From contig NC_008578.1 of assembly GCF_000015025.1 (NCBI RefSeq), forward strand, positions 780,001 through 812,000: a stretch of 32,000 nucleotides of DNA, read 5' to 3'. Both the position numbers and the translations under genes were made by a program. Position 1 is the first letter of the stretch. The number at the start of each line of letters is the position of its first letter. The notes beneath the pieces are model-generated. The model was not told the DNA's origin. It did not search any database and saw nothing but the letters and a program-made list of their open reading frames with translations. Positions 11,462-27,467 of this stretch are shown here, piece by piece. Source of the DNA: Acidothermus cellulolyticus 11B (GTDB lineage Bacteria; Actinomycetota; Actinomycetes; Acidothermales; Acidothermaceae).

Positions 11462-12715
11462 TCATCCTGCGAAAAAGCGACGCAGAAAATCGTTCTGGAA
11501 CTTGCCCTCCGGGTCGTAACGCTCCGCGAGCGCGACGAAGTCGTCGAAGCGTGGATATGCCGCCCGGACGACGGCCGGATCCATGGTGAAGAGCTTGCCC
11601 CAATGCGGCCGCGGCTGCAGCGGAGCGAGCGCCCGCTCGACCTCGGAAACCACCGGCCGGACCGCCTCTTCATCAGCGATCCAGGTGAAGTGAAACGCGA
11701 CCGACGGCCGATGGTATGCCGGACTCAGCCAGAGCTCATCCGCCGCCACCGTGCGAATTTCGGAAATCTGCAGGACCGGCGCAATGCGGGAGCCGATGTG
11801 CCGCAGGGCGCGGTATGCCTCAACTGCGGCGGCGCGAGGGACGAAGTATTCGCTCTGCAGTTCGTCGCCGGCGCTGGGCGTGACGTCCAGACGGAAATGC
11901 GGCAACCGCTCATGCCACGGTCCGATCCGGCCGAGCTGCGGAGTGCAGTTCTCCGGGGGCATTCCGGGAACCGGGTTGTGGTCGCGTTCGGCCAACCGGC
12001 CGCCCCAGCGTCGCGCCGGTGGGTCCGGCCGGCCGGCGGCCACCCGCTCCTTCAGCCAGATCTGGCGGGCGGTGGGTGGATCCCAGGTGGTGAAAATGCT
12101 CACGCTGTACGCAGCAGAGGTGACATCGTCAAGGTCGGCGAAAACATTGTCAAGGGGGGCGTCCTCATATACCCACTGGCGCACGGTGAAAGTTGGTTCG
12201 GTAACCAGCTCGATTTCGGTGACGGCGCCCAGCGCACCGAGGTGGACCACGGCGCCGGGAAACTCCGGCGATTCGGCGGTCAGGTGAAAGACCCGGCAGG
12301 TGCCGTCGACGCCCGTCATGCCCGCCACGGCGGTGGCCAGGCAGCCGTTGCGGTCCCCCGAACCATGAGTGGCCGTCGCGCAGGCTCCGGCTATGGAGAT
12401 GTGCGGCAGGGAGCCCACGTTCGCGAGGGCCCATCCCGCCTCGTGCAGCGGGAACGCCAGGTCGCCGTATCGCGTGCCGGCGCTCACGGCGGTTCGTCCC
12501 GGCATGACCCGCACCTCGCGGGGCAGGTGATCAAGGGAAATCAGGGTGCCGGTAGTGTCGGCGATCGGATTGAACGAATGTCCGGTGCCGAGGACCCGTA
12601 CCTGATCAGACACCCGAATTATTTCGACGAGCTCGTCCAGATCACGGGGCTGAACGTAACGGCGCGGGCGGAACGCAATGTTTCCAGCCCAGTTGCGAAG
12701 CCTCGGTGCGGACAC
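11462..12715 (-). CDS. FAD-dependent alditol oxidase / sugar-1,4-lactone oxidase family (VAO fold)
   Basis: NWAGN start motif, VRVLGTGHSFN (the position of the covalent-FAD histidine in this family), LPHISIAG, PWHERLPHF and PHWGK. Close by eye to Streptomyces alditol (xylitol) oxidase. The start is set at GTG 12715, just before NWAGN as in characterised homologues. The ORF is open to GTG 12823, but that start would overlap the MFS gene by 64 nt. Confidence 0.85.
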   Translation of the reverse strand: MSAPRLRNWAGNIAFRPRRYVQPRDLDELVEIIRVSDQVRVLGTGHSFNPIADTTGTLISLDHLPREVRVMPGRTAVSAGTRYGDLAFPLHEAGWALANVGSLPHISIAGACATATHGSGDRNGCLATAVAGMTGVDGTCRVFHLTAESPEFPGAVVHLGALGAVTEIELVTEPTFTVRQWVYEDAPLDNVFADLDDVTSAAYSVSIFTTWDPPTARQIWLKERVAAGRPDPPARRWGGRLAERDHNPVPGMPPENCTPQLGRIGPWHERLPHFRLDVTPSAGDELQSEYFVPRAAAVEAYRALRHIGSRIAPVLQISEIRTVAADELWLSPAYHRPSVAFHFTWIADEEAVRPVVSEVERALAPLQPRPHWGKLFTMDPAVVRAAYPRFDDFVALAERYDPEGKFQNDFLRRFFAG

Positions 12716-12759
12716 CTCGACATCATAGGCCGCTCGCAAGGACGCTGCGGCGGACGGCG

Positions 12760-13974
12760 TTACCTGCTCGCTTGGCGCCGGCGGTTGAGGAGTCCCGTCG
12801 CGACAACGCTTGCCGCCATCCACGCCGCGGCATAGCCGAAGGCAACGGCCGGGGAGACGGTTGCGTAGAGAATTCCGACGACGGCGGTCGCGACAAGGTC
12901 GCCCAGCGCCTGGACACCGCCGAGCACGCCGAATCCGCTGCCGCGCAACCGGTCAGGCAGCAGAGCGGCGAAGAGCGCCGATTGGGCGGTCTCGGCAAGC
13001 CCGATTCCCGCGCCGGCAAGGATGAAGGCCGCCAGCAGCCACCACCACGCCGCCACACCGACGGCGAAACCGGCGTAGGCCAGCACGTACAGCGCGCCGC
13101 CGGCGGCGAATGCCGGCGCGGGGCCCGCGTGGTCGACCCATCGCCCGGCGGCGAGGGCGACCACCGAACCGAACGCGTTGTGCGCCGCATAAATGAGAAT
13201 CGCCAGACTCGCCGCAGCAGTCGCCGTTTCGCCGTGACCGGTGAGCACGTGGGTCGCCCGCAAGATGAGCAGGGTCGTCGCCACGTTGCCGAATTCGAAG
13301 AGCGCGATGGGCAAGAGCGCACGAATCACCCCGGCCTCGTGCAGAGCCCGCCAGGCGAACCGCGGTCGCTCCCGGCGCACGGAGTCACGGGCGCTGGCTT
13401 CGCGTGCCGCCACGCCAATCGCCACCGCGGCGAGAATTCCCGGCAGGAAAGCGACATAGAGCGCGTGGCGGATACCGATCCATGCCACCAGCCCGGCGGC
13501 AAGCAGCGGGCCAATGACCGCGCCGAGATTGTCACCGGCACGCTCCAGGCCGTACGCCCTCCCGTACGCGTGGCTGGGTGCCACCGACGCCAGCAGCGCG
13601 TCACGGGACGGGGAGCGGATGCCACGGGACGTCCAGGCGAGGGCACGCAGAACCCCAACCTGCCACACGGCCGTCGCCGCCCCGATAAGGCCGGTGGCCA
13701 ACGCCGTTCCGAGATACCCTCCGGTGGCAAGCCGCCTGCGGCGGGCAGGATCGTTGGCAAGCGGGCCGCCGAGCAGTTTGGCTACGCCGGTCAACGCATC
13801 AGCGAACCCCTCAATCAGTCCGAGCGCAGCCGCCGAGCCGTGCAAGACGCCGGTGAGGAAGCTCGGCAAGACGGCGGTGGCGATTTCGTGCCCGGCGTCG
13901 CTGAAAAAGCTGGCCGCGCCCACACTGCCGACGCCCGGAGTGAGCCAACGCTGCTGCTCAACAGTGGTCGCCAC
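12760..13974 (-). CDS. MFS transporter
   Basis: 404 aa with about 12 hydrophobic helices. Motif-A-like loop GGPLANDPARRRRL. GTG start preceded by GAGGAGGAG. Confidence 0.85.
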   Translation of the reverse strand: MATTVEQQRWLTPGVGSVGAASFFSDAGHEIATAVLPSFLTGVLHGSAAALGLIEGFADALTGVAKLLGGPLANDPARRRRLATGGYLGTALATGLIGAATAVWQVGVLRALAWTSRGIRSPSRDALLASVAPSHAYGRAYGLERAGDNLGAVIGPLLAAGLVAWIGIRHALYVAFLPGILAAVAIGVAAREASARDSVRRERPRFAWRALHEAGVIRALLPIALFEFGNVATTLLILRATHVLTGHGETATAAASLAILIYAAHNAFGSVVALAAGRWVDHAGPAPAFAAGGALYVLAYAGFAVGVAAWWWLLAAFILAGAGIGLAETAQSALFAALLPDRLRGSGFGVLGGVQALGDLVATAVVGILYATVSPAVAFGYAAAWMAASVVATGLLNRRRQASR

Positions 13975-13998: not shown

Positions 13999-16290
13999 TC
14001 AGATGCGCAGCGAGTAGTCGCTGCGGGTCCGGGTGAGATTCGGGTTGTAGTACGGGTCGTGGTCGACGTACGTCGCCCAGCGTCTGCGCAGCAGGCTCAT
14101 CTGACGAGGGGCGGTTTTCTCGACCTCGGGCTCCGGCGCGTAATGGCAGAGCCGCACGTACGGCAAGAGGACCGTACGGTGGCCGCGTTGCCGCAGGCGC
14201 AAGCAGAAATCTGCGTCACCGATGGCGCCGCTGAGTTCATCGTCGAAACCACCGGCCGCATGGAAGGCCTGGCACCGCACCATGAGACACGTGCTGCTGA
14301 CAGCGGCGACGTTCGACGGGATGAGAAGACGATTGAAGTACCCGGGGTGGTGGGCCGGGAAGCCGCGGAACGGGTGCCCGATTCCGCCTGCGATGCCAAG
14401 GACGAAACCGGCATGGTCGATCGTGCCGTCGGGGCGGAGCAGCACGGGGCCCACGGCACCGATCTCCTCACGCAGGGCGTACCCGGCCATTTCGTCCAAC
14501 CAATCTGCTGTGCCGACGGCGACGTCCCCGTGCAGAAAAACGAGGAGGTCGCCGGATGCGCAGTCGGCGCCGTGGTTCATCAGCCGACTCCGGCGAGCCG
14601 GCGTGCGCAGGGATTCGACCCGAAATCGCTTCGGCTCCTGCGTGTGCCAGAAAGTCAGAAGGTCGCGAAGCTGTTCATCGTTACGGCCGTCGTGGACGAC
14701 GATGACCTCGATGTTCGGGTACGCAGTCCGATCGAACAGTGCGCGGATGCAGTCAGGATCAATGACGCCGGTATTGGGTGCGGCGACCACGATGGAGATG
14801 AGCGGCTGGTTCGAGACGGCATAGTGGACGCGGAAATTTCCCCGCGCTTCCGTGATTTCCTCAACTGTCGCTACCGCTCCTCTGCGGTGCAATGCTTCGC
14901 GGATCGCACGGTGCGCGGCGGCGTATGCGTAGGGCTTTGCGTCGGCACTGGCGGCGGCGGATCCAGGATGTCGACGCCAGTGGTAGAGGACGCGCGGTAT
15001 GTGGTAGATGCGATCGGTCTGTTCGGTGAGCCGCAGGACGAGGTCGTAATCCTGGCTGCCTTCGAAGCCGAGCCGGAATCCGCCGATCCGCCGGACAAGT
15101 TCGGTCCGATACACCCCGAGGTGGCAGGTGTACATGTGGGAGAGGAGCAGCTCGGGGGACCAGTCGGGTTTGAAGAACGGTTCTTGGCGTACGCCGTCCT
15201 CATTAATCTTGTCCTCGTCACTGTAGATCATGTCAGCATCGGGATGCTCGTTGAGCAAGGCGGCTACGTGGAGGAGGGCGTCGGGCGCGAGTTCGTCGTC
15301 ATGGTCGAGAAGAGCAATGAAATCGCCCTGCGCGGCGTCGAGAGCGGAATTCGACGCCGCCGAAATATGTCCGTTCACCGGGCGGAAAATTGCCGTGATG
15401 CGGGCGTCCCGCGCTGCGTATTCCTCCAACACCTGCCGCACGTGGGGCGCACTCGACGCGTCATCAGCCAGGCAGAGTTGCCAGTAAGGGTAGGACTGCG
15501 CGAGAACCGAGTCGATGCAGCGGCGCAACCAGCGTTCGGCGGCGTTGTGCACCGGAACGAGTACGGAAATGGTCGGTGTCCGGCGGAGGCCGGCGATCGT
15601 GGCGCGCAGACGTTTCTGATCCGCGGCGCGCGCTTCGGATCTGCGGATCCAGACGGTGTACTGCCGGGCAAGCTCAGCCGGCGATGGTGCAACATCCGGC
15701 GGATAGCCCGGTGTGGCGAGGACGCGCGGCGCGCGCAGTCCGTCGGGTCCAATGAGAGCGCGGAGTTCGCTGAGCAGCACTGTGGTTCTACGGATGGTGG
15801 AACCCGGGAGGCTCAACCACCGGCGGTACAGCGCACGGGCGGGGAGCTCGAAACGGTGGACGCGTCGCACCGTCACGTCGTCGAAGGTGAAGCGGCCCGG
15901 CCGTTCCATCGGATCCAGACGCAGGCGGCAGGTGTCAGGGGGGAGGAAGAAGACGGCCCGCTGTTCCACTGGGCGGACGGTCGCAACCGTGCCGAGTTCG
16001 ATGCAGTCCGCTTCGTGGAAACCCGCGCCACGGTCGAGGTACAGACGCATCCGCATGAGCTGCCGGCTGCCGGCGCGCATGCGGAATTCGACCCAGCCGC
16101 TGGGTATGTGCCCGGCGAGCAGGAATTGCGGATCGATGTCAACGGCTTCCCATTCGGGCGATTCCGGAGCCTGGCGGACGCCGGTGACCGGGACCAGTTG
16201 CACCGGGCTGGGTTTTTCTCCGCGCAGGGCGGTGATGGCGCCGAGGAGATGGCAGACCCGGCGGACCCCCTGGGTCAGTTTCTGCCGCAC
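13999..16290 (-). CDS. glycosyltransferase family 2 protein with two tandem GT2 domains and an approximately 230-aa N-terminal domain of unknown function
   Basis: GT2 domain 1: ISVLVPVHNAAERWLRRCIDSVLAQSYPYWQLCLADDASS ... LLDHDDEL. GT2 domain 2: ISIVVAAPNTG ... IEVIVVHDG ... FLHGDV. 763 aa. Confidence 0.8.
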   Translation of the reverse strand: MRQKLTQGVRRVCHLLGAITALRGEKPSPVQLVPVTGVRQAPESPEWEAVDIDPQFLLAGHIPSGWVEFRMRAGSRQLMRMRLYLDRGAGFHEADCIELGTVATVRPVEQRAVFFLPPDTCRLRLDPMERPGRFTFDDVTVRRVHRFELPARALYRRWLSLPGSTIRRTTVLLSELRALIGPDGLRAPRVLATPGYPPDVAPSPAELARQYTVWIRRSEARAADQKRLRATIAGLRRTPTISVLVPVHNAAERWLRRCIDSVLAQSYPYWQLCLADDASSAPHVRQVLEEYAARDARITAIFRPVNGHISAASNSALDAAQGDFIALLDHDDELAPDALLHVAALLNEHPDADMIYSDEDKINEDGVRQEPFFKPDWSPELLLSHMYTCHLGVYRTELVRRIGGFRLGFEGSQDYDLVLRLTEQTDRIYHIPRVLYHWRRHPGSAAASADAKPYAYAAAHRAIREALHRRGAVATVEEITEARGNFRVHYAVSNQPLISIVVAAPNTGVIDPDCIRALFDRTAYPNIEVIVVHDGRNDEQLRDLLTFWHTQEPKRFRVESLRTPARRSRLMNHGADCASGDLLVFLHGDVAVGTADWLDEMAGYALREEIGAVGPVLLRPDGTIDHAGFVLGIAGGIGHPFRGFPAHHPGYFNRLLIPSNVAAVSSTCLMVRCQAFHAAGGFDDELSGAIGDADFCLRLRQRGHRTVLLPYVRLCHYAPEPEVEKTAPRQMSLLRRRWATYVDHDPYYNPNLTRTRSDYSLRI

Positions 16291-16349: not shown

Positions 16350-18404
16350 TTATCGGTGGCCCATGCCTGCGACGGCGGCGAGCAACGCGATGAGAGCGGC
16401 AAGCATGTACGCGAGGTAGGCCTCGAGCCGGCCCGATTGCAGCCGTTTCACCCCAGCCACGACCCGGCGCGTCCACCGGATCAACGGCCGGTAGAGGAAG
16501 GCGCCGACCGCTTCGACGACGTCGCTGGTGTATCCAAGCTGGACGTCGCCCACTCCCCGCTGTCCCGACCCGGCCCGGCCGCCGGTCGCCGCTTCCAGCG
16601 CCCGCAGCTCCGTGCGCGTGAGCAGCAACCCGGCAAGCAGTTTCCGTGTCGGGTTGGTGTACCCGAACGCCGTGTACCGGTCATGGCCGGCCACCCCGCC
16701 GGTCGCCGATCGCCATGCCGGTACTCGGCGGACTCGAAGCATGGCCAGCCGGGATCCCGTCAAACCGATTCCGGCGGCCAGCGCGAGGAACCCGGGAAGA
16801 ACGATCCACAGCCAGCTCGGGGAGAGGATCGAAAAGTCGGCGAAGACCGGCTGCAGCACCCATGGTCCGTTGAGCGCTTGCGTCACCAGGTCACGCCCGA
16901 CGAGCGGATCCAGTCCGGCCGCGATGAAGCGGATCACCTCGGGCGCTATGGCGGCCGTCGCGAGGCAGACCAGGCTGAGTATTGCGACGGCTGATCCGCC
17001 AAGCCAGCCGAGATCACCGCGTTCTCTATTGGTTGCGGCTTGGCCGTTGCGCTTGCCCAGGACGACGAATCCGAAGAGCCGGACGAACGTCACGCCGGCA
17101 AAGCCGGTGGTCAGCGCAACGAGAGCACCCGCGACCGCCATCGCCACCTTGACGGCCAGGCCGGTGAGCCGGAACTGCTGCATGAGCGCCTCGAGGAGGA
17201 ACCATTCGGAGACGAAGCCTGCGGTCAGCGGCAATCCCGCCAATGTGATCGAACCGATCGCGAGTCCCGCGCCGGAGGCCGGCAGTCGCCGTCCGATGCC
17301 GACCAGCTCGTCGAGGTCGTCGCTTCCGACGTGCCGCTCAGGACCGGCCGCCGATACGAAGAGCAGCGCCTTCGCCGCGGCGTGAGCGATGACCTGCAGC
17401 GTCGCGGCAAGCAACCCAACGGCGACCAGCCGGGGTTGGCCGACGTACCAACCGGCCAGCGCCACCCCGTAACCGGCGAGAATCAGCCCGGCATTCTCCA
17501 CGCTGGAGTAAGCAATTACGCGCATCAGGTGCGTCTGAACCGCGGCATGCGCGATGCCCAGGATCGCGGTGATGCCGGCGACCACCAGGACGGCAACCAC
17601 CAGCCAGACGGGTGGGCGTCCGAGCAGCGCCGCCGTCCGGTACAGACCGTAGAAGCCCACGTTGACGGCCGCGCCGGCAAGCAGCGCGCGGACCGGGCCG
17701 ACCGCCGCGGCGTAGGTGGGCGGCACCCACACGTGAAACGGCAGCAGCCCAACCTTGCTCGCGAACCCGGCGACGAGCAGGGCGTACGCGATGTCGTGCC
17801 GCGGGCCGAGGTGGACGGCGAGGTCGGCGAACCGCCAGCCGCCGGGACCCTGTTGCGGCGCGGCCAGCAGCAGGAATCCCACCAGGAGCAGGCCACCGCC
17901 GATCTTCCCGAAGGAGAACGCGGTCATCGCCGCCCGACCGCCGCCGGAGCGCTGCGGCGCACCCGCGAGCAGGTAGAAGGCCAGCGACAGCAGCTCCCAC
18001 CCGCCGACGAGGACGAAGACGTCGTCCGCTGCTATGACCAGTGCGGCGGCGGCCAGGAGGAGCGCGATGCCTCCGCCGATTCCGTGGCGGCGGAGCCCGC
18101 GTCTCGCCCACTCGGCGACCGCCAGCAGGACAGGGACGGCGACGCCGAAGCAGATCACCAGGAAGAGGCCGGCGAGGTGGTCGACCCGCAACCCGCCGAC
18201 GGGCAGCGCGAGAAGGCGGTGGAGGTCGGCGGTCATCTGACGGCCGGTCATCGCGCGGGCCCCGAGAACGACGAAGAGCGCGGATCCGGCGGCCGCGAGA
18301 AGCGGGCCGCCCATCCGCGCCGGACCGACCCGGATCGGTACGACGAGATCCCAGACGATTGCCCCGGCCAAGCAGGCAAATCCAGCGATCAGCAGTTCGA
18401 TCAT
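16350..18404 (-). CDS. HyfB/NuoL-like antiporter-type membrane subunit (proton-conducting membrane transporter family)
   Basis: The start is set at ATG 18404, which forms an ATGA overlap with the upstream stop (MIELLIAGFACLAG...). The Arg-rich 130 codons upstream look non-coding. Family hallmarks: GGWELLSLAFYLL, SKVGLLPFHVWVP and HAAAKALLF. 684 aa. Confidence 0.85.
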   Translation of the reverse strand: MIELLIAGFACLAGAIVWDLVVPIRVGPARMGGPLLAAAGSALFVVLGARAMTGRQMTADLHRLLALPVGGLRVDHLAGLFLVICFGVAVPVLLAVAEWARRGLRRHGIGGGIALLLAAAALVIAADDVFVLVGGWELLSLAFYLLAGAPQRSGGGRAAMTAFSFGKIGGGLLLVGFLLLAAPQQGPGGWRFADLAVHLGPRHDIAYALLVAGFASKVGLLPFHVWVPPTYAAAVGPVRALLAGAAVNVGFYGLYRTAALLGRPPVWLVVAVLVVAGITAILGIAHAAVQTHLMRVIAYSSVENAGLILAGYGVALAGWYVGQPRLVAVGLLAATLQVIAHAAAKALLFVSAAGPERHVGSDDLDELVGIGRRLPASGAGLAIGSITLAGLPLTAGFVSEWFLLEALMQQFRLTGLAVKVAMAVAGALVALTTGFAGVTFVRLFGFVVLGKRNGQAATNRERGDLGWLGGSAVAILSLVCLATAAIAPEVIRFIAAGLDPLVGRDLVTQALNGPWVLQPVFADFSILSPSWLWIVLPGFLALAAGIGLTGSRLAMLRVRRVPAWRSATGGVAGHDRYTAFGYTNPTRKLLAGLLLTRTELRALEAATGGRAGSGQRGVGDVQLGYTSDVVEAVGAFLYRPLIRWTRRVVAGVKRLQSGRLEAYLAYMLAALIALLAAVAGMGHR

Positions 18405-19210
18405 TGCAACCGTCCCATGGCCAGGAGAAGCGCGTGCAACAGGGCGAACGGCGTAGGCGGCGAGCCGGGCACCCAGATGTCGACCCGTACGGGATCGCCG
18501 TCCGCGGCACCCGTGGCACCCGCCGAGTCCGGGGTCGCCGCGATGAGGTCGCCGATTCCCCCGCTGGTCGCGTACGTCGGATGGACCAACCCGCCGCTGA
18601 TCGCATCGGTGCCCGCTGCGATGACGACCAACGGCCGCGGCGCGGCCTGGAGAGTTCGGGCCAGCGGCGCGGCCATTCCCCGCGACCCGACGCCGGTGAC
18701 CAGCAGGACGTCGGCGTGCCGGGGGGATGCGGTAAAGAAAATCCCGAGCCGGTGGATGTCGTACACCGGATTGAGCAGGGCAAGGACCTCCCACTCATCG
18801 GCGCCGTCGGAACCGGCGTCCACGTGCCGGACATGGATGGATCGGCGCAGCAGCCGGGTCCGGCGGGCCAGCTCGGCGCGGACCGCAGCGAGGGCGTCGT
18901 CCGTTTCCGGGAGTGCGGGGACGACGAGGAGGTCCCGGTGCGCCGCCGGCGCAGGAATGGTGAACCGGAACCGCTCCGGATACTGCCGCACGCAGCGGTG
19001 ACAGAGAATGCACCGACCCTGATCGACGTGGAGCCGGTCTCCGTCCCGGCTGATGGCGCCGGTTGGGCAGACCGCGGGGATTTCCGCCGGAACCGCCTCA
19101 CCGGGTCGGTCGATGGGCGTGACCGCACCAGGGAACGTGTCGCGGTACGAGTCAGGGTGGGCCGGCCAGCGGCTGGTGACGCGGCGGCGACCACGGGTGA
19201 ACCACGGCAT
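18401..19210 (-). CDS. fusion of a ferredoxin-like (HycF/NuoI-type) N-terminal domain with a NuoB/HycG-like small-subunit domain; the NuoB-like domain contains no cysteine
   Basis: NuoB/HycG-type body: SPRHADVLLVTG, VIAAGTDAISGG and VDIWVPGSPPTP. The N-terminal part has VCPTGAI and CILCHRCVRQYP. These four are the only Cys in the 269-aa protein. The ATG overlaps the TAA of the large-subunit gene (TAATG). Confidence 0.8.
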   Translation of the reverse strand: MPWFTRGRRRVTSRWPAHPDSYRDTFPGAVTPIDRPGEAVPAEIPAVCPTGAISRDGDRLHVDQGRCILCHRCVRQYPERFRFTIPAPAAHRDLLVVPALPETDDALAAVRAELARRTRLLRRSIHVRHVDAGSDGADEWEVLALLNPVYDIHRLGIFFTASPRHADVLLVTGVGSRGMAAPLARTLQAAPRPLVVIAAGTDAISGGLVHPTYATSGGIGDLIAATPDSAGATGAADGDPVRVDIWVPGSPPTPFALLHALLLAMGRLQ

Positions 19211-20709
19211 TACAGCGCCACCCCCGCGATGGAGAGCCCGAAACTGGCTTCGATGAAGGGAAAATCCGTGAGGATATCGCCGGCGAAAACGTCGTGGAAG
19301 AGCACGAGGTTATGGAAGGACGCCGACCGCGGCGCACATCGGGAAATCCGCCCGTCGTCGCACTCCACGACATAAACGACCTCGCCCTGCGGCGCTTCCG
19401 CCCAACCGATGCCGCGGCCGCTGATCCGGTCGATGGCGGCAGGCACGTCGGCCGGCTCGGCGGTCGGAGCCGACAATGCCGCGATGTGTGCGACGGCCTG
19501 CCGGATGAGCTCCGCCGAACTGCGGATTTCCGACCACCGGATTTCCAGCCGTGCCAACGCATCGCCGGATCCGGAGGACACCGCCGGAAACTGCGGCAGA
19601 TCGGAGTACTCGTCGTACGGCCGATGCCAACGGTCGTCGTCGTCGAAACCTGACGCCCGCCCGATCGGTCCGAGGGCGCCGTGCCGGCGGGCGAGTGCCG
19701 GGTCGAGTGGTCCGGTGCCGCGGAGCCGGTCGAGGAAAGACGGCGTCTGCATGAGCAAGTCGGCGTCCGCGAAGACCTCACGGAGAATGTCGTCCAGCCT
19801 GGTGAGCAGTGCGTTCGGGGAAATCGCTGGTTCGCAACCGATACCGCCGGGTACGACGACACCGCGGCCGAAGCGGCTGCCGCACGCGGCGCCGATAAGC
19901 CGCAGAATGCGCTCCTTGTGGTAGCCGAATCGGGACACGGCAACGGCCAGCCCGGCGGCGTCGGCGAGTTTCAGCGCGACGTCGAGGTGGTTGGCGATGC
20001 GTTCGAGTTCCGCGAAAATAACCCGCACCGACCGGTCCCGCGGTGACGGGATGACACCGGCGAGGTCTTCCACCGCATGGCAGAAGGCGAGCGCGTGCGC
20101 CACCGAGGCGATTCCCTCGACCCGTTCCGCCAGCAATACGCCGTCGGAGACGTCGAGGTCCTCGAAGCGCCGCTCGATGCCGCGATGCTTGGCGAAGACG
20201 CGGATGCCGACGTACGGAATGTCCTCTCCCGGGGTTTCGACGAGATACTCCACGGATTCATAGACACCGGAGCGGACGGGTCCGTGCGGAATGGTGAAGA
20301 CGCCATGGCCGAGGACCCGCGACGGGATGGCCGCTTCGTCCGGGGTGAGCGGCGGTATCGCCGAGCGCTGTCCGGGCAGCGGACGCGGTTGTGCCTCACG
20401 GAGCGGAAGAATCAGCGGGTCGAGCCGCGGATGCCCGAGCGGTTCGAGGCCGAAGAGGTCGTGGATTTTCCGCTCATACCAACTGGCGGCCGGCACCACG
20501 GCGGAGAGCGCCGGGTAGCTGGTTGATCCGCGCGGAACCGCGACGTCGATGGCGTCGATGCTGCCGGCGCTGGCCAGAAGCGCCGTCAGCCGGAGGTCGG
20601 ACTCCGGGGGAGCGGTGGCGAACAGGCTGGCGAATCGGTTCGAGGCGAGCCGGTCGAGGATGTTCGTCCGCCAGACGGCGATATCTGCGGTCAGCGGGGT
20701 CAGCGTCAT
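19210..20709 (-). CDS. fused NuoC-NuoD / HycE-like large subunit lacking the NiFe-binding cysteine motifs
   Basis: NuoC-like WYERKIHDLFGLEPLGHP, then the NuoD/large-subunit core: HGPVRSGVYESVEYLVETPGEDI and FAKHRGIERRFE. The start is set at ATG 20709 (TGATG overlap with the upstream stop). 499 aa. Confidence 0.85.
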   Translation of the reverse strand: MTLTPLTADIAVWRTNILDRLASNRFASLFATAPPESDLRLTALLASAGSIDAIDVAVPRGSTSYPALSAVVPAASWYERKIHDLFGLEPLGHPRLDPLILPLREAQPRPLPGQRSAIPPLTPDEAAIPSRVLGHGVFTIPHGPVRSGVYESVEYLVETPGEDIPYVGIRVFAKHRGIERRFEDLDVSDGVLLAERVEGIASVAHALAFCHAVEDLAGVIPSPRDRSVRVIFAELERIANHLDVALKLADAAGLAVAVSRFGYHKERILRLIGAACGSRFGRGVVVPGGIGCEPAISPNALLTRLDDILREVFADADLLMQTPSFLDRLRGTGPLDPALARRHGALGPIGRASGFDDDDRWHRPYDEYSDLPQFPAVSSGSGDALARLEIRWSEIRSSAELIRQAVAHIAALSAPTAEPADVPAAIDRISGRGIGWAEAPQGEVVYVVECDDGRISRCAPRSASFHNLVLFHDVFAGDILTDFPFIEASFGLSIAGVAL

Positions 20710-22247
20710 CAGCCACCTCCGAGTTCTACGGCGCCGCGGGTGAGCAGGTCGATGAGGGACGCCGGAGGGTGCATCCCGAGCAGCACGAGAACAGCCAGTC
20801 CGAGCACCGGCGGGATCACGAGCCACGCGCTGAATTCGCGGCCCAGCCGGGGGGTCGGCCGATCCGGCGTCTTGGCGATGCTCTCGTCCGACGTCCGGCC
20901 GTCCGCCGCGTTGGATGACAATGAAGCGGACGCCGTGGTGATTCCGGCTTCGTCGGCGGGGAAAACCAGGGCGGTGGTCGTCCAGGTGAGACCGGCGAAG
21001 GCGAGGATGACGAGAGCGACGAGCACCGCGACGGTGCCGCTGTGGCCGGCGGCGAGTCCACCGGCGACGATATAGAACTCACTGCGGAAGATTCCAAACG
21101 GCGGCGCGGCGGCAAGGGCGAGTATCGCCAACAGGAAAAGCGGCGCGGACCAGGGGAGTACGGTGAAGCCGCGACGCATGGCGGTGAGATCCTTCGTTCC
21201 GAACGCGCGGACGAAAACCCCCGCCCCCATGAACGCGTTTCCCTTCGCTGCAGCGTGTGCGAGGACGTGCAGCAGAACGCCGACGACGGCAATGCGGGCG
21301 CCGAAACTCATGCCGACGGCAAGAATTCCCATGTGCTCAATGCTGGAATAGGCAAGCAAGCGTTTGATATCCCGTTGGTCGAGCAGGTACAGCGCCGCGA
21401 GGGCGAGCGACGCGATGCCGAAGGCGAGCAGGACCTGGCGGGGAAAAGCAGCGCCGAGGGTTGCGACGGCGACTTGGTAAAAACGGAGGATCGCGTAAAA
21501 GCTTACTGCGAGAAGCGAGCCGGAGAGCAGGGCCGAGACGGGTGTCGGCGCTTCGGAATGTGCATCGGGCAGCCAGGTGTGCACCGGAAAGAAGCCGACT
21601 TTCGTCCCGAAACCAAGGACGGCAAGGACGAATCCAAGCCGGACGGCCGTGTGCGGAAGTCCTGCGGAGTGCATGGTGAGGGCGTCGAAGGTGAAGGTGT
21701 AGGACGTGCCAAGCACCTGTGAGCCGGCGTAGTAGTAGAAAACCGTTCCGAAGAGGGCAAGGCCGAGACCGGCTGACGCGATGAGAACGTATTTCCAGGC
21801 GGCTTCCGTTGCGGCGTCGGTGTCGTCGATGGCGACCAGGAGCGCAGAAATGACCGTAGTGAGCTCGACCGCGACCCAAAGGAGGGTGAATCCGTTGACC
21901 ATCGGCGCCGCCAGCAAGGCCCACGCGAAGAGGTTGATGCCGGCGAGGATGCGCCGGCAGTATCGACGGTCGACGTGCTCGGGCCGTAGATAGCCGATGG
22001 CGTAAAGCGCAACGGTGGCATACACAAGCGCGGTGGCAAGGAGAAAAATCGTGGAAACCGCGTCGACCCGGAGAAAACCGGCGGCGACGCTATGGGCACG
22101 CGTCGCGGTAACCAGCGCCAGGACCGCGCCGAAGGAGCCAACGCCGACACCCGCGGTGAGGATCCGGCCCGCTGTTGGGGGAGCGATGAGGCAGACACCG
22201 GCGGCGACGAACGGTACGACAAGGAGTGCAACAAGAAGTGTGCTCAC
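20709..22247 (-). CDS. HyfF/HyfD/NuoN-like antiporter-type membrane subunit
   Basis: Hallmarks WVAVELTTV, TKVGFFPVHTWLPDAHSEAPTPVSALLSG and HAAAKGNAF. The start is set at GTG 22247 (VSTLLVALLVVPF...), 4 nt after the upstream stop and preceded by GGGGGTGAG. Confidence 0.85.
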   Translation of the reverse strand: MSTLLVALLVVPFVAAGVCLIAPPTAGRILTAGVGVGSFGAVLALVTATRAHSVAAGFLRVDAVSTIFLLATALVYATVALYAIGYLRPEHVDRRYCRRILAGINLFAWALLAAPMVNGFTLLWVAVELTTVISALLVAIDDTDAATEAAWKYVLIASAGLGLALFGTVFYYYAGSQVLGTSYTFTFDALTMHSAGLPHTAVRLGFVLAVLGFGTKVGFFPVHTWLPDAHSEAPTPVSALLSGSLLAVSFYAILRFYQVAVATLGAAFPRQVLLAFGIASLALAALYLLDQRDIKRLLAYSSIEHMGILAVGMSFGARIAVVGVLLHVLAHAAAKGNAFMGAGVFVRAFGTKDLTAMRRGFTVLPWSAPLFLLAILALAAAPPFGIFRSEFYIVAGGLAAGHSGTVAVLVALVILAFAGLTWTTTALVFPADEAGITTASASLSSNAADGRTSDESIAKTPDRPTPRLGREFSAWLVIPPVLGLAVLVLLGMHPPASLIDLLTRGAVELGGG

Positions 22248-22251
22248 GATC

Positions 22252-22926
22252 TCACCCCCGCAATCCACTGAGTTTCCGGGTGGAGAGCGACTGCCGGCGA
22301 TTGTGATGAATGCGGATGAGGGCGCTGAACACCACAACGGCGACGAGCAGGTCGAAGAGCAGGACGACTTCAAGCAGGAACGGCATCGTCGCGGCGATGA
22401 CCAGGCTCGCCAGTGAGACAGCGTTCTCCATCGAGAAGAAACCGACCGCCTGCGACACGACGTCCCGACGGAAAATCATGAGGATGAAGGCGACCAATAC
22501 CGCCGCGACGGCCAGCGAGAGCGCGGTTCGCGGAAGAACGGCCGCGCGAATCGGCAAGCCGGCGGTGGCGAAGAAGCCGAATGCCGTCGCCAGGAGTGCG
22601 CACAGCGTCCGCGTCGCAACACCCAGGACGCCGCTGCCGGCGATGTCCGTACCGGTGTCGCGGAGCATGCGGCGCAGAACGGCAGGAACCGCGAGCACCT
22701 TCAACACCGCGGACAGTACGGCGAGGGCATAAAGGTCGGGTACGTTGCGTTGCTGCGCCGCAATGGCCGCGAGGACCGCGAGCAGCAGCGACTGCCCGGC
22801 GTACAAGCGGATCTGGGCCGGCAGGAGGGCGGCGCGGAGCATGCCGAACTCGGCGAGGAGAACGAGGACGGCGATGACGTCGGCGACGCCGTCAAAGACC
22901 GGCGGCGCCGGTGTTCCGGTCGGCAT
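22252..22926 (-). CDS. HyfE-like small polytopic membrane subunit (NuoK-related)
   Basis: 224 aa. The start is set at ATG 22926. Multiple hydrophobic helices. FFSMENAVSLASLV resembles the HyfE conserved segment. Size and position match hyfE / mycobacterial hycP-type genes (from memory). Confidence 0.7.
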   Translation of the reverse strand: MPTGTPAPPVFDGVADVIAVLVLLAEFGMLRAALLPAQIRLYAGQSLLLAVLAAIAAQQRNVPDLYALAVLSAVLKVLAVPAVLRRMLRDTGTDIAGSGVLGVATRTLCALLATAFGFFATAGLPIRAAVLPRTALSLAVAAVLVAFILMIFRRDVVSQAVGFFSMENAVSLASLVIAATMPFLLEVVLLFDLLVAVVVFSALIRIHHNRRQSLSTRKLSGLRG

Positions 22927-22963
22927 CAGCGGCGCCCTTTCGTCGTGGTGGGTGTGGTGCGCA

Positions 22964-23926
22964 TCATCCGCCTCCCAGGTAGACGGTGAAAACGGCCAGT
23001 ACAGCGAGAAGAAACGCGGCGGCGACAAATTCGCTGATTTTGAAGAGGCGGAGCTTGGCGAACGAATCGTCGATGACCGCCACACCGACGCCGACGAGGG
23101 CGGCCTTTCCGAGGAGGGCGAGGACGGCGAGAATGACGGCGGCGAGTGAGCCGTCGGAGGCCAGACCCCACGGTGCGACAAAGACATTGAGGAAGATGAT
23201 GTACAGGATGAATTGTTTCATCGCCGCGCCCCACCGGAGCATGGCCAGGTAGGGCCCGGAGTGCTCGAAACTCCGCGCCTCTTCGATCATCCCGAATTCG
23301 TTCGTGCCGCTGTGCGTCTCGATCGGGATGCGGCCGGTCTCGTAGAGGATCACCAGGAAGAACGCGGCAGCGGCCAGCAGGTGCGCCGGGCGCACGATCT
23401 GACCCGCGCTCTGCCGCACGGTGGCCGCCAGCGCATACGGCAGGTCGGTGCTGGTGAGCAGTGCGACGGTGAAGACGACGAACAAGACGACCGGTTCCGT
23501 TATGGCGCCGAAGGTCTTCGACCGGCTCGATCCGAGCTGGGCGTATGGCGAGCCCGTCTCGGCGGCGGCAAGGGCCACCGCGAAACTGGCCAGCGCCAGG
23601 AGGAAGCCGCCGCCGAGAATGTCGCCCATGTAGCCGAGCGGCAGGCCGTAACTGGTGAGGACGGGAATGAGCAGCGGGATGGTGAGATAGCACACGAAAG
23701 CGACGAACGGTGCGGCAAGGAAAATCCAGCTCGCCTCCAGCGGTGCGAGTGACTCCTTGCGGAAGAATTTCACGATGTCGTAGTAGGGCTGGAGAATCCG
23801 TGGACCGCGCCGTCCTTGCAGCCGGGCCTCGAGACGCGCGATGAACCCGGAGAGGCCGGGCGCGGCCAGGGCCACCGTCCCGACCTGGAGAACCTGGAGG
23901 AGAACGGGGGAGAGCCGTGGATTCAT
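22964..23926 (-). CDS. HycD/HyfC/NuoH-like membrane subunit
   Basis: RLQGRRGPRILQPYYDIVKFFRKE and YETGRIPIETHSGTNEFGMIEE are NuoH/HycD-type motifs. 320 aa. First long gene of the operon. Confidence 0.85.
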   Translation of the reverse strand: MNPRLSPVLLQVLQVGTVALAAPGLSGFIARLEARLQGRRGPRILQPYYDIVKFFRKESLAPLEASWIFLAAPFVAFVCYLTIPLLIPVLTSYGLPLGYMGDILGGGFLLALASFAVALAAAETGSPYAQLGSSRSKTFGAITEPVVLFVVFTVALLTSTDLPYALAATVRQSAGQIVRPAHLLAAAAFFLVILYETGRIPIETHSGTNEFGMIEEARSFEHSGPYLAMLRWGAAMKQFILYIIFLNVFVAPWGLASDGSLAAVILAVLALLGKAALVGVGVAVIDDSFAKLRLFKISEFVAAAFLLAVLAVFTVYLGGG

Positions 23927-24003
23927 CAGCGTGCACTCGTCGGGGTCGATGACGCGCAGCAGCGGGCGGGGAGTGCGCGGTGCGATGAGGAGATGCCGGG
24001 CAT
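23926..24003 (-). CDS. candidate 25-codon leader ORF (MPGISSSHRALPARCCASSTPTSAR), translationally coupled to the HycD-like gene
   Basis: Found by hand; it is below the size cut-off of the ORF track. ATG at 24003 lies 7 nt after AGGAG (24011-24015). Its TGA overlaps the ATG of the next gene by 1 nt (TGATG), the same junction used elsewhere in this operon. 19 of 24 third positions are G/C. Confidence 0.3.
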   Translation of the reverse strand: MPGISSSHRALPARCCASSTPTSAR

Positions 24004-24009
24004 TGTTGC

Positions 24010-24074
24010 GCTCCTACCTCTCGACTCAACACGTGGCGCGCGCTGCGCGCGCCGCGGGGTTGGGAGGTAGGAGC
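24010..24074 (-). promoter_or_regulatory. nested hairpin in the operon leader that would sequester the leader-ORF Shine-Dalgarno
   Basis: Perfect 11-bp inverted repeat GCTCCTACCTC (24010-24020) / GAGGTAGGAGC (24064-24074). It encloses a 9-bp palindromic arm pair GGCGCGCGC-T-GCGCGCGCC (24035-24053). On the minus-strand RNA the 3' arm contains the AGGAG. Confidence 0.4.
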
Positions 24075-24265
24075 CATCAGCCAGGTGACACTTCGCCGGT
24101 GTCGATCACACCGGTCAGGCGGACTCCATCGCCGTCATCAGGGTAACCGATGCCGACGTACGCTCAGCCATGGTGTCCATCGGACCGCTGCATCAGGTCG
24201 ATGCCGCCGCGCAGGGCGCGGCCGGTGTGGTCGTGCATGGCGAACGTCAGCGGTGGTGACCAGCC

Positions 24266-24748
24266 GTGTCAGACGATGCAGATCAGTCAGCTGCAGGCTC
24301 GCCGGAGAGCGTTGCCGGTTCCGTCGTGTTTCTGGCGGATGTGCGGCTGCTGCGCGCCTTGAGCACTATTCTCCGGACGGCGGTCGATCTGCAGCGGGAC
24401 GCAGCGCGGGTGATTGATGCCTGCTTGGAGCCGGGAGGCAAGACGGCCGACCTTGCGCGGCTGGGCGGCCGCGTCACCAGCGGCTATTTCCGCCTCCGCG
24501 AGCAGTTGCGCAGCATGCCGGACCACCCTTTGGTCCGGGAGGTGGATGCGTTGGTGAATTACCATCAGCAGATCGTCGAGCAGGCGATGCTCTTCGGATA
24601 TCGCGGGTTCGACGCCGGTCGGGAGAAGGTGCTCCGCGGCTGGTCCGACCGGTTGGGCGCGCCGGCGCAGCGGCTGCGCGATGTGTACGTCGAGGTGCAG
24701 CGGCGGCTCGCCAATCGGGAATACCAGGACGGCGAACGCCCGGGGTAG
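24266..24748 (+). CDS. hypothetical protein (predicted all-helical, no family recognised)
   Basis: 160-aa ORF with GC3-biased codons, starting at GTG 24266. A hairpin plus T6 tract lies downstream. Confidence 0.5.
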   Translation: MSDDADQSAAGSPESVAGSVVFLADVRLLRALSTILRTAVDLQRDAARVIDACLEPGGKTADLARLGGRVTSGYFRLREQLRSMPDHPLVREVDALVNYHQQIVEQAMLFGYRGFDAGREKVLRGWSDRLGAPAQRLRDVYVEVQRRLANREYQDGERPG

Positions 24749-24882: not shown

Positions 24883-25686
24883 TCACCGCGTGGTCATGCC
24901 GCGGCACAGCTCGATTGCGAGGACCCGGTCCAGATAGGCAAAGGTTTCGAACTTCGCGCCGTCGGGGAGCCGAGGGTCCGCGGCGGCGGCCCGGAGCAGA
25001 TCGACTACCCGCGGCAGGTCCAGATCGTCCTCGAGTGCTTGCCGCGCCGCCTGGACATACTCGGCTGGCACCGGTGCGGACGGGCAGTCTGCCCAGGCCG
25101 CGACGGCGCTTCGCCACGCGGTGAGATCGGCCTGCGCCGCCGCCAGGTGCGAGTGGTCAAGGAGGACCGGCCGCGCATAGTGGCGGGCCGACAGCGCCAG
25201 GCGTTGCGCGAGGGGATCGGCGTCGCGCGGGAAGTTCCGCCAGGCGCCGGCGACCGCGACCGTTGGGACGTCGGCGCCGGGTGTCAGTGCATCCGCCGGT
25301 ACGACGCGCAAGTGAGGGCGACCGAGCAGGACGTCGGCGCCGGGTGTCAGTGCATCCGCCGGTACGACGCGCAAGTGAGGGCGACCGAGCAGGACGTCGG
25401 CGGCCTCGGTGTCGGTCTCGACGACGTCGTGCGGAGGTGCGATGCCGAAGTCGTTGCACACGACGTTCAGCCAGGAGCGCGTGTGCGTCGGGGAAACCAC
25501 GGCCGTTAGGACCTGAATCCCGGAGAGCTCACGGATTCGCCGGAGACTATCACCGACCAGCAGGACGCGGACGCCGGTGAGGTCGGCGGCGCTGTGCGGC
25601 TCGGGCGGCGTGACGACCATGCGGAGCACCGCACTCCCGCCGACGGCGACGAGCCGCCGGGTCACGGCGTCCCGGAGCTGGAGCAC
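24883..25686 (-). CDS. truncated MshC / cysteinyl-tRNA-synthetase-like protein, predicted catalytically inactive
   Basis: The N-terminus aligns by eye with the class I Rossmann start of MshC/CysRS, but the HIGH position reads DLTG. The C-terminus (DPLAQRLALSARHY ... LTAWRSAV ... ALEDDLDLP) resembles the MshC/CysRS helical domain. There is no KMSKS. It is 267 aa versus more than 400 aa for the enzymes. GTG start. Confidence 0.55.
   Translation of the reverse strand: MLQLRDAVTRRLVAVGGSAVLRMVVTPPEPHSAADLTGVRVLLVGDSLRRIRELSGIQVLTAVVSPTHTRSWLNVVCNDFGIAPPHDVVETDTEAADVLLGRPHLRVVPADALTPGADVLLGRPHLRVVPADALTPGADVPTVAVAGAWRNFPRDADPLAQRLALSARHYARPVLLDHSHLAAAQADLTAWRSAVAAWADCPSAPVPAEYVQAARQALEDDLDLPRVVDLLRAAAADPRLPDGAKFETFAYLDRVLAIELCRGMTTR
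25266..25402. repeat. perfect 63-bp tandem duplication (2.2 copies) inside the MshC-like CDS
   Basis: 25266-25328 equals 25329-25391, and the match continues to 25402. The duplication is in frame and doubles the 21-aa peptide ADVLLGRPHLRVVPADALTPG. Confidence 0.95.
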
Positions 25687-25916
25687 GGTCCCACGGTAGC
25701 GAGACCGGCACGTGCCGGAATCTTTCGCTTAGGACCGATCCCCGCGGTCGTTGCGCCGGGACCGGTCCCGGCGCCGTCTTCGCTCAGGACCGATCCGTCC
25801 GTCGTCTCTGTGTCAGGGCCGATCGAGCCGCCGCGGGTAGACTGAACGCGGCGATGAAGCCCGCCGACAATGCGCCGCCCGGCTGATGGCTTCTACCGAG
25901 TTCGGTGGAGGTCGTC

Positions 25917-27467
25917 ATGACGGTGCTCAAGGAGCGGGCCGCAAAACCGAGTGTTCTCTTCGTCGACCCGACGGCGTTGGCGGCGGTCGACGAGCAGCCC
26001 GAGTTCTTCAAGGACCTCCATCTCGACGAGATCCTGGACGTGATTCTCGCTGGATACGAAGAATATGGGCTGCGGCCGTTGTTCTACCAACCGTTAGGTG
26101 ACGTCGACGCCGTCCGGTATCGGCACGAGGTCTTCCGGGATCTTCAGGATGCGGGCATCCGCGAAGCGGTTGACGCGTTCACCGCTGCTCTGCGCGACAT
26201 GCGCAACGCCTTCGCGATGAGCGAAAAACTCTCTTACCCGCAGCAGAAACAACGGTGGTTCCTCGACGCTGCTTTGATCTACTGTAACGCCGTTGCCTCA
26301 TTGGCGCGTCGATTCTCCCGGATGCCTCTCGGCTCACGAGGACTTCAGGCACTTGCCGATTACCTTCAGGGTTACGTCGCATCGCCGGCGTTTACCCGTC
26401 TTGCCCGCGACGCCCGGTCCGTGAGCGATGCGCTGGCCGGCGTTCGGTATGCGGTGCATATCAAGGGGAGCCAGGTGCGCGTGCAGCGCTATGCCGGGGA
26501 GCCGGAGTACAGCGCCGAGGTGACCGAGACGTTCGCCCGATTCCAGCAGCGGACCGGCGCCGATTATCGGGTCACCTTCAGCGAATCCGCATACATGGAT
26601 CACGTCGAGGCGCGCATCGCGGATCTCGTGGCTGCGCTGTACCCGGCTGAGTTCACCGCCCTTGTGACGTTCACCGAGGTGCACGCGGATTTCCTGGATC
26701 CGGTGGTGGCGGCCTTTGACCGCGACATTCACTTTTACCTGGCGTATCTGCGGCATGTGGAGCGGCTAACGCGCGGGGGACTGCCGTTCTGCTATCCAGA
26801 ACTGTCGACGACGTCGAAGGAAACCGTGGTCCGCGGCGGTTACGATCTCGCTCTTGCCATGACGCGTGACGGAGAGCCCGGCGCCATCGTGGGCAACGAT
26901 TTCTCGCTTGACGGCGGGGAGCGCGTCATCGTGGTGACCGGACCCAACAGCGGAGGGAAGACGACGTTCGCCCGCATGTTCGGACAGGTGCACTACCTTG
27001 CGAGTCTCGGTCTGCCGGTGCCGGCGCGCGCGGCTCGGCTGTTCCTTCCCGATCGGGTCTTTACGCACTTCGAACGGGAGGAGCAACTTGCGACTCTGCG
27101 CGGCAAGCTGGACGACGAACTTGTCCGGCTGCGGGACATCCTGGCGCATGCCACCGCCAGGAGCGTCATCGTGATGAATGAGAGCTTCTCTTCGACGGCG
27201 TTGCGGGATGCGCGTTACCTCGGCGCCGAAATTCTGCGCCGTGTCCTCGGGCTGGACGCCATCGGCGTTTACGTGACCTTCGTCGACGAGCTTGCCTCGA
27301 TCGACGGGAGGATCGTGAGCATGGTCGGGATCGTCGATCCCCGCGACCCGGCCCGGCGAACGTACCGGTTCGAGCGCCGTCCCGCAGACGGCCGGGCGTA
27401 CGCCCTCGCTGTTGCGGCGAAATACGGTCTGACATACGAGCAGCTTCGCCGGCGGGTGGCGTCGTGA
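25917..27467 (+). CDS. MutS-family ATPase (core plus ABC ATPase domains only), paralogue A
   Basis: Walker A VVTGPNSGGKTTFARM followed by the MutS-like LASLGLPVPA. Walker B region VIVMNESFSST. ATG 25917 lies 5 nt after GGAGG (25907-25911). The ORF is open from GTG 25905. Confidence 0.8.
   Translation: MTVLKERAAKPSVLFVDPTALAAVDEQPEFFKDLHLDEILDVILAGYEEYGLRPLFYQPLGDVDAVRYRHEVFRDLQDAGIREAVDAFTAALRDMRNAFAMSEKLSYPQQKQRWFLDAALIYCNAVASLARRFSRMPLGSRGLQALADYLQGYVASPAFTRLARDARSVSDALAGVRYAVHIKGSQVRVQRYAGEPEYSAEVTETFARFQQRTGADYRVTFSESAYMDHVEARIADLVAALYPAEFTALVTFTEVHADFLDPVVAAFDRDIHFYLAYLRHVERLTRGGLPFCYPELSTTSKETVVRGGYDLALAMTRDGEPGAIVGNDFSLDGGERVIVVTGPNSGGKTTFARMFGQVHYLASLGLPVPARAARLFLPDRVFTHFEREEQLATLRGKLDDELVRLRDILAHATARSVIVMNESFSSTALRDARYLGAEILRRVLGLDAIGVYVTFVDELASIDGRIVSMVGIVDPRDPARRTYRFERRPADGRAYALAVAAKYGLTYEQLRRRVAS

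Follow-up and report, generated by a model that had tools for sequence, protein, structure and literature searches.

An Ehr-type, complex-I-like operon of Acidothermus cellulolyticus, predicted to lack NiFe and NuoB-type cluster sites, lies behind a fluoride riboswitch

Complexes of the Ehr (energy-converting hydrogenase related) type are characterized, in the definition given by PMC6349859 and PMC4758237, by subunits homologous to those of the group 4 NiFe hydrogenases and complex I, together with the absence of the NiFe-binding residues. The class dates from 2013 and, where PMC6349859 and PMC6728331 use the term, stands without a function; the label has been applied to Rv0081-Rv0087 of Mycobacterium tuberculosis (PMC6728331; PMC6349859). 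A second body of literature concerns the crcB RNAs, the aptamers of fluoride riboswitches, which since 2010 have been reported in front of mutS genes and of genes for "formate hydrogen lyase" (PMC2864571). Common targets of crcB RNAs, according to PMC2864571 and PMC11139923, are genes for "formate hydrogen lyase", enolase, pyrophosphatase, Na+/H+ antiporters and mutS, the antiporters being among the most common (PMC11139923), and reviews explain the association with formate hydrogenlyase (FHL) as formate metabolism (PMC11139923; PMC8752731). We present a six-gene operon of Acidothermus cellulolyticus 11B, located in a 32,000-nucleotide stretch of contig NC_008578.1 (positions 780,001 to 812,000; hereinafter the window), in which these two threads meet: the riboswitch-controlled "formate hydrogen lyase", at least in Actinomycetota, is by its predicted cofactor sites an Ehr-type complex with neither a NiFe site nor a NuoB-type cluster. 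As both sites are gone, formate or hydrogen metabolism cannot explain the association with the riboswitch. Thus, two puzzles, the function-less Ehr class and the unexplained FHL target of the fluoride riboswitch, are one object, at least in this phylum. The two halves were known separately; we found no work linking Ehr or hydrogenase-like complexes with fluoride, though our literature search lacked most subscription journals and the connection has possibly been made elsewhere.

The operon consists of six open reading frames (ORFs) arranged head to tail on the minus strand of the window (16350-23926). In operon order, these code for a HycD/NuoH-like membrane subunit (hycD, 320 aa, 22964-23926; Pfam NADHdh, E = 2.3e-32), a HyfE-like membrane subunit (hyfE, 224 aa, 22252-22926; NCBIfam hydrogenase 4 membrane subunit, E = 1.1e-19, under the curated cut-off), a HyfF/NuoN-like antiporter-like subunit with a GTG start (hyfF, 512 aa, 20709-22247; Pfam Proton_antipo_M, E = 1.4e-48, and NCBIfam HyfF, E = 3e-94), a large subunit that is a NuoC-NuoD/HycE-type fusion (500 aa, 19210-20712; Pfam Complex1_30kDa and Complex1_49kDa), a small subunit in which a half-ferredoxin is fused to a NuoB/HycG-like domain (269 aa, 18401-19210; Pfam Oxidored_q6 and a weak Fer4 match), and a HyfB/NuoL-like antiporter-like subunit (hyfB, 684 aa, 16350-18404; Pfam Proton_antipo_M and NCBIfam hydrogenase 4 subunit B, E = 3.2e-99). 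The position of hyfE is conserved in all related loci. With the gene starts chosen by inspection of the junctions, these read 37 nt, 4 nt, TGATG, TAATG and ATGA in the same order. An earlier note on this DNA had proposed both the six-subunit content and these junctions; the former is borne out by the ORFs present and the agreement of the Pfam and NCBIfam assignments, and the latter is exact. Its description of a full FHL/Hyf-type core stands for the HycD-, HyfE-, HyfF-, HycE-, HycG- and HyfB-like subunits and has to be amended in that HycB is absent and HycF survives only as the fused half-ferredoxin. The earlier note had also set the upper limit of the operon at 24003; hycD starts at 23926, whereas the ATG at 24003 belongs to a leader ORF of 25 codons.

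The best sequence matches in the PDB for the large subunit, the small subunit and HyfB are those of the E. coli Hyc/Hyf system (7Z0S), with which the operon has in common its types of core subunit as well as a membrane arm of the HyfB/HyfE/HyfF type. It differs from that system in lacking the NiFe site, the proximal cluster, HycB and a separate HycF. As had been noted earlier, no hyp maturation, endopeptidase or formate dehydrogenase gene is present within the 32-kb window.

In an alignment with E. coli HycE (7Z0S_E), the four NiFe-binding cysteine positions are occupied by E199, A202, S494 and G497: RVCGICGFAH of HycE aligns with RVEGIASVAH, and the C-terminus FGLSIAGVAL lies opposite LDPCYSCTDR. 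Residue-level alignment of the large subunit took in MbhL as well. Locus-level comparisons here and below use about 80 best related loci, and residue conservation was assessed in 72-81 orthologues depending on the subunit. E199 and G497 recur in all 81 large-subunit orthologues, A202 in 78 and S494 in 76 of them. The two NiFe-binding CxxC pairs of a group 4 [NiFe] hydrogenase, in RxCGxCxxxH near the N-terminus and DPCxxCxxH/R near the C-terminus, are thus missing, in line with the earlier claim, and conservation of the substituted positions in about 80 orthologues from independent assemblies means that neither decay nor a sequencing error or frameshift is responsible. The protein also stops three residues past the last motif position, with no cleavable C-terminal extension. 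Invariant positions make up 27% of the large subunit, many of them charged, and include the acidic residues E152, E155, E159 and E163 close in sequence to the substituted site. Nor is the quinone site of complex I recognizable: the position of the quinone-binding Tyr87 of NuoD (T. thermophilus numbering) corresponds to Glu199, and that of His38 is Tyr in the window protein and M, F, L or V in its relatives.

These observations bear on the reading that the operon encodes a genuine FHL or group 4 NiFe hydrogenase whose cysteines were lost to sequencing or frame errors, which is what the source annotations of the homologues and the FHL label repeated in reviews (PMC11139923; PMC8752731) would imply. 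We regard it as practically negligible, since beyond the 81 concordant orthologues and the truncated C-terminus, the ORFs are intact and translationally coupled, the cluster ligands of the small subunit are gone too, and hyp, hycI and fdh genes were not found nearby. Instead, homology of the core subunits combined with the absence of the NiFe residues matches the published definition of Ehr, as the earlier note had suggested, and the operon is, by its predicted products, an Ehr-type complex and not a hydrogenase or FHL.

The losses extend to the small subunit. Alignment to HycG and MbhJ places D135, D138, D202 and S250 at the ligand positions of the proximal (NuoB-type) cluster and A132 opposite an additional HycG cysteine. 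These replacements are themselves conserved (D135 in 75/77 orthologues, E or D at 138 in 77/77, D202 in 74/77 and S250 in 69/77), and the invariant acidic residues D131, E139 and E141 lie near them in the sequence. Hence, neither the four cysteines that ligate the proximal [4Fe-4S] cluster in hydrogenases nor those of complex I cluster N2 are present, and the NuoB/HycG-like domain is cysteine-free, as had been claimed. The only cysteines of the protein, C48, C67, C70 and C73, all fall in the N-terminal ferredoxin-like part, where C48, C67 and C73 are each found in 77/77 orthologues and C70 in 76/77. Their arrangement, CP...CxxCxxC, is the pattern for one [4Fe-4S] cluster of a two-cluster ferredoxin, suggesting that a single [4Fe-4S] cluster is probably retained. 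As this Cys4 site is invariant across the family, the earlier description of the catalytic arm as redox-dead is right as to the NiFe and NuoB-type sites and is not proven for the arm as a whole. An AlphaFold model built with 40 homologues has a predicted local confidence (pLDDT) of 82-92 over residues 31-80 and is also confident over the NuoB-like core, which matches HycG, MbhJ and NuoB in Foldseek searches; the model supports the folds and cannot reveal cofactor geometry. Taken together, the conservation pattern indicates a family under strong purifying selection, with a peripheral arm that appears to have been rebuilt and is carboxylate-rich.

The membrane arm presents the opposite picture, with its ion path intact. 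The TM5 Glu, TM7 Lys and TM12 Lys (TM, transmembrane helix) of HyfF are E128, K216 and K335, each present in 75/75 orthologues, and those of HyfB, placed by alignment to HycC and MbhH, are E137 (71/72), K217 (72/72) and K345 (72/72). The claim that both antiporter-like subunits keep these charged residues is therefore well founded: of the 72-75 orthologues compared, at least 71 have each residue. Among all subunits conservation is highest in HycD, with 45% of its positions invariant and a mean column identity of 0.86, the range across the subunits being 16-45%. The same Glu/Lys/Lys set is shared with the Mrp antiporters and the corresponding module of MBH/MBS (6CFW, 6Z16, 7QRU). However, the window complex has a HycD/NuoH-like subunit and a two-protein peripheral arm (NuoC/D- and NuoB-like), which are absent from the seven-subunit MrpA-G set, and Pfam and NCBIfam profiles recognized no MrpB, C, E, F or G among the operon genes. 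With complex I (NDH-1) it shares the Q-module/P-module architecture and homologues of NuoH, NuoB, NuoC-D and NuoL/N, and differs in the Glu at the Tyr87 position and in the lack of cluster N2, of the N-module and of a NuoA/J/K set as such.

Database searches recovered more than 3,500 relatives of the large subunit, under source names such as "formate hydrogenlyase subunit 5", "NADH-quinone oxidoreductase subunit C/D" and "Ni,Fe-hydrogenase III large subunit". A scan of one genome per species found a relative in at least 372 genomes, and the 80 best of these belong without exception to Actinomycetota, including Acidothermus, Nocardia, Amycolatopsis, Streptomyces, Micromonospora, Mycobacterium, Streptosporangiaceae and others. 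No related locus with sufficient sequence (about 80) departs from the six-gene order; other Acidothermus loci show 61-85% identity and the same synteny. This distribution and the invariant gene order, along with the 16-45% of invariant positions per subunit, the invariance of the ion-path residues and the dedicated riboswitch conserved before the operon, tell against a decaying hydrogenase relic without present function. Such a relic would account for the loss of most cofactor ligands, and we nonetheless deem it very improbable. The data on sequence and conservation exclude both the true hydrogenase and the decaying relic.

To place the family in the wider superfamily, we searched 1.84 billion cluster representatives exhaustively, which yielded 4,390 relatives. 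Alignment of the full-length ones resolves three layers that differ in the residues standing in for the four NiFe ligands or retained there: E/A/S/G in the immediate family, a broad Cys-less radiation with mostly S/S/S/G, and true hydrogenases with C/C/C/C (CxxC...CxxC), which appear only at 31-38% identity. Among the Cys-less relatives the loss of iron-sulfur sites is graded. Two distant ones, in the related loci L083 (37% identity) and L086 (44%), retain the eight ferredoxin cysteines and all NuoB-type cysteines, so that the L086 small subunit keeps all twelve iron-sulfur cysteines; L085 is intermediate; and in L082 (46%) the ferredoxin, with seven cysteines, is encoded by a gene of its own, while Asp/Glu/Asp/Ser is already in place in the NuoB-like protein. 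By its predicted ligand sites, the window's family is the most reduced form among the Cys-less relatives. It shares with the described Ehr complexes the NuoB-, C-, D-, H- and L/M/N-like subunits, the antiporter-like subunits among them, and the missing NiFe residues, and differs from them in also lacking the NuoB-type cluster and half of the ferredoxin, clusters that L083 and L086 keep, and in its link to the fluoride riboswitch.

Two loci, L079 (119-5128) and L055 (725-3429), have a further Ehr-like cluster, divergent in sequence, directly upstream of the operon under riboswitch control. The large subunit of this second cluster shows 36% identity, is Cys-less and ends EASFWLTVAGTAR; its small subunit is short and keeps the cluster cysteines without a ferredoxin domain, and a HyfB-like gene comes next. 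This arrangement implies that paralogous Ehr lineages coexist. The second cluster may be of the Rv0082-87 type, and as such a paralogous cluster at 36% identity sits beside the operon in these loci, the orthology of the window operon with Rv0082-Rv0087, whose gene order the earlier note had likened to that of the operon, is doubtful.

The 5' leader of the operon contains a fluoride riboswitch aptamer (crcB motif, RF01734) at 24061-24142 on the minus strand, a full-length model match scoring 36.5 bits against a gathering score of 34 (Rfam cmscan, E = 9.4e-07). This same-strand leader aptamer, whose P3 region is enlarged by an inserted additional hairpin, places the operon in the RF01734 regulon. 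We built a covariance model of our own, R1, from 23 aptamers of related loci; its results are hence partly circular. With R1 the window aptamer scores 35.6 bits, and 66 of the 68 assessable loci have an aptamer on the strand of the operon, at a distance of 28-242 nt before hycD. The curated Rfam model, applied to seven loci outside the R1 training set, returned gathering-level hycD-leader matches in six of them (41.6-45.8 bits). Moreover, the pseudoknot between the P1 loop and the 3' tail shows compensating changes between loci (GGAG/CUCC versus GAAG/CUUC). The more distant loci L082 (3925-16422) and L086 (4607-12455) also have aptamers before hycD by R1, the latter scoring 38.1 bits; in L082 the Rfam scan at the gathering threshold gave no match, and the two variant aptamers that R1 gives there are weaker evidence. 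Some loci bear up to five aptamers within 21 kb. We also observed "fluoride islands" in L010, L031, L028, L016 and L004, with three to five aptamer matches in about 21 kb, where several of the aptamers precede small ORFs in recurrent, unannotated clusters.

We predict an expression platform at 24010-24074 on the minus strand, in which GCTCCTACCTC (24074-24064), the 3' strand of the aptamer, can base-pair with GAGGTAGGAGC (24020-24010). The latter contains the Shine-Dalgarno sequence of the leader ORF, 6 nt before its ATG at 24003. The minimum-free-energy fold of the leader includes the GCTCCTACCTC/GAGGTAGGAGC hairpin; since the stability of the whole-leader fold is not significantly greater than that of shuffled sequences (z = -1.48), the case for this hairpin lies in its complementarity and not in its energy. 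The leader ORF itself (23926-24003, minus strand; MPGISSSHRALPARCCASSTPTSAR) has 25 codons, and its TGA overlaps the hycD ATG as TGATG. A leader ORF of at least 8 codons that is preceded by a Shine-Dalgarno sequence and has its stop overlapping the hycD start is found in 38 of 63 related loci, where the Shine-Dalgarno sequence is often GGTAGAGGAGG, which is complementary to the tail of the aptamer, CCTCTACC. Of 66 related loci, 23 have a downstream stretch of 7 nt or more that is exactly complementary to the 3' segment of the aptamer. Consensus scans for promoters and terminators around the leader gave nothing useful on the operon strand. From this arrangement we infer a translational ON switch. 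Such short ORFs between aptamer and hycD occur in L010, L018, L022, L024, L031, L032, L036, L045, L068 and other loci, and many of their peptides share a motif, roughly (D/E)xAPEPPG(N/K)D, that the window peptide does not have; the Pro-Pro-Gly stretch could stall ribosomes.

The gene neighborhoods of the related loci provide further context. Clustering of the flanking ORFs identified as recurrent neighbors a universal stress protein (USP; 20 loci, mostly directly downstream), a pair of MutS domain V proteins (19 loci, within 10 kb, in varying orientation and often with their own aptamer), an enolase paralogue (15 loci), a DUF190-like protein (13 loci), CrcB (10 loci) and an inorganic pyrophosphatase (5 loci). 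This is the literature's fluoride-riboswitch gene set (PMC2864571; PMC11139923). In the window, the Rfam scan also detected a second fluoride aptamer at 25841-25902 on the plus strand (38.5 bits against the gathering score of 34, E = 2e-07; 57.5 bits with R1), which ends 3 nt before the first of two overlapping genes of a divergent unit (25905-27467 and 27464-28954, plus strand), each with MutS domain V only (Pfam MutS_V). In L082, the operon is followed by Usp and then, with a second aptamer in front of them, by pyrophosphatase, MFS and CrcB genes; this pyrophosphatase is a fusion protein of 490 aa whose C-terminal part is of unknown kind. The window thus resembles the fluoride-riboswitch regulon, as set out in Weinberg 2010 (PMC2864571) and in Baker 2012 as cited by PMC11139923, in having one aptamer before an FHL-annotated operon and another before mutS-like genes, while its related loci share CrcB, enolase, pyrophosphatase and USP as neighbors. 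The point of departure is that the literature takes the hydrogenase-like genes as a real, formate-metabolizing FHL, which the sequences described here preclude.

Hence, we posit that the operon with its riboswitch is probably part of the cell's fluoride defence. The explanation that we favor, at even confidence, is that of a fluoride-switched Ehr-type complex that translocates ions or protons under fluoride stress without redox drive. When fluoride is absent, the aptamer 3' strand would pair with the ribosome-binding site of the leader ORF; upon binding fluoride, the aptamer would keep its 3' strand, releasing the GGUAGGAG segment and freeing that site. The leader ORF would then be translated, and ribosomes would enter hycD via the overlapping TGATG stop/start and carry on through the tightly coupled downstream genes. 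Fluoride stress is tied to pH homeostasis (PMC11139923): HF leaking in and F- exiting through channels would amount to proton import and drain the membrane potential. The membrane arm of HycD, HyfE, HyfF and HyfB, with its Mrp/complex-I-type path, might move protons and/or Na+/K+ and so help sustain cytoplasmic pH and membrane potential, in which case it would share with Mrp ion movement without redox chemistry. The conserved peripheral arm would be kept to cap or gate HycD, with carboxylates rebuilding what used to be its metal sites. A redox-independent translocator is the most economical reading because the ion path is complete while the electron-transfer chain is gone. The non-canonical input that the earlier note had surmised for the complex thereby acquires a concrete physiological setting in the fluoride riboswitch.

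Several points weigh against this proposal. Classical Na+/H+ antiport imports protons and would worsen acidification, such that the direction and the ion of transport pose a difficulty. The strong conservation of the peripheral arm exceeds the apparent need of a passive cap, and the invariant Cys4 site argues for a surviving cluster-dependent step. Further, L086, at 44% identity and behind an R1 aptamer, keeps its full small-subunit set of iron-sulfur cysteines, and the ancestral job may have been redox-driven. The window aptamer is only 2.5 bits over the Rfam threshold and its insertion is unusual; no T-tract terminator was found after it, and the switching mechanism is a sequence reading only. 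Finally, the function is deduced from genomic context.

Some of the same observations favor a redox pump, in which the [4Fe-4S] cluster would take electrons from a soluble donor such as ferredoxin to an acceptor in the large-subunit/HycD pocket and thereby drive proton export against fluoride uncoupling. The four cysteines of the half-ferredoxin are invariant, the L086 relative behind its R1 aptamer keeps a complete three-cluster chain, and fluoride cycling calls for a proton exporter (PMC11139923). Nevertheless, we consider this rather unlikely: the NuoB-type ligands are all replaced by conserved Asp/Glu/Ser, which removes the relay from the ferredoxin clusters to the pocket. To judge by the structures of complex I, FHL and MBH, the gap left without the NuoB-type cluster would be too long for fast electron transfer. 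The Glu at the Tyr position of the NuoD quinone site and the variable His position speak against it as well, as does the absence of any encoded electron-donor module near the operon in the window and the related loci.

The conserved acidic residues may also be read as a new binding site, wherein the carboxylate and hydroxyl groups of the peripheral arm would hold Mg2+ or another hard cation together with fluoride, and conformational coupling of the complex-I type would spend the proton gradient to sense, sequester or expel it. The replacements are indeed non-random and conserved (D135, E/D138, D202, S250 and E199), with more invariant acids nearby; the riboswitch itself recognizes fluoride through Mg2+ (PMC11139923), and its link to the family is nearly universal. 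However, this possibility, which we hold to be a long shot, is reasoned purely from sequence; the CrcB channels in the same loci already serve export, and a relative with intact ligands shares the same aptamer type, so the carboxylates are unneeded for the fluoride link. Were it true, a complex-I-type machine would have switched from redox chemistry to halide defence, and the conformational coupling by which ion pumping is ordinarily tied to the reduction of quinone or protons would be reused to sense, trap or expel fluoride.

The link to the fluoride riboswitch makes the function of Ehr directly testable through fluoride tolerance and fluoride-induced expression. More generally, the family offers a natural case of a complex-I-like membrane arm that is under strong selection after near-total loss of cofactors, and thus bears on the coupling mechanism in the complex-I/group 4 hydrogenase superfamily.

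The remaining genes around the operon are of more local interest. On the same strand, 59 nt after hyfB, are genes for a double-GT2 protein of 763 aa (13999-16290), an MFS transporter (12760-13974) and an ALO/FAD-type oxidase (11462-12823). The earlier note had suggested these as possible partners of the complex; a survey of the gene neighborhoods of the 80 related loci by tblastn found no conserved counterparts beside the operon, and they are best regarded as local neighbors only. Divergent from the operon lies an ORF of 160 aa (24266-24748, plus strand) without a match in Pfam; the gene that occupies this position in an Acidothermus metagenome-assembled genome (MAG) shares 69% identity with it; beyond this MAG no counterpart was found beside the operon. 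Fifteen related loci in addition to L045 (16703-18418) encode, near the operon and the MutS-like pair, a protein of about 570 aa whose N-terminus resembles a P-loop GTPase (GEAKRGKST). Elsewhere the window contains leuA, genes for an FAA hydrolase and gltX with two tRNAs, a sugar ABC system followed by DeoR, DeoC and FGGY genes, and, besides the oxidase, MFS, double-GT2 and two MutS_V genes already mentioned, two unknown genes, tig and clpP. The two tRNA genes (3342-3413 and 3484-3556, plus strand) lie 3' of the glutamyl-tRNA synthetase gene (1675-3189). Between the two riboswitches, an ORF of 267 aa (24883-25686, minus strand) has weak relatives (35-37%) in three other loci; inside it, a perfect 63-nt tandem duplication (25266-25402, 2.2 copies, 100% identity) repeats 21 residues (ADVLLGRPHLRVVPADALTPG).

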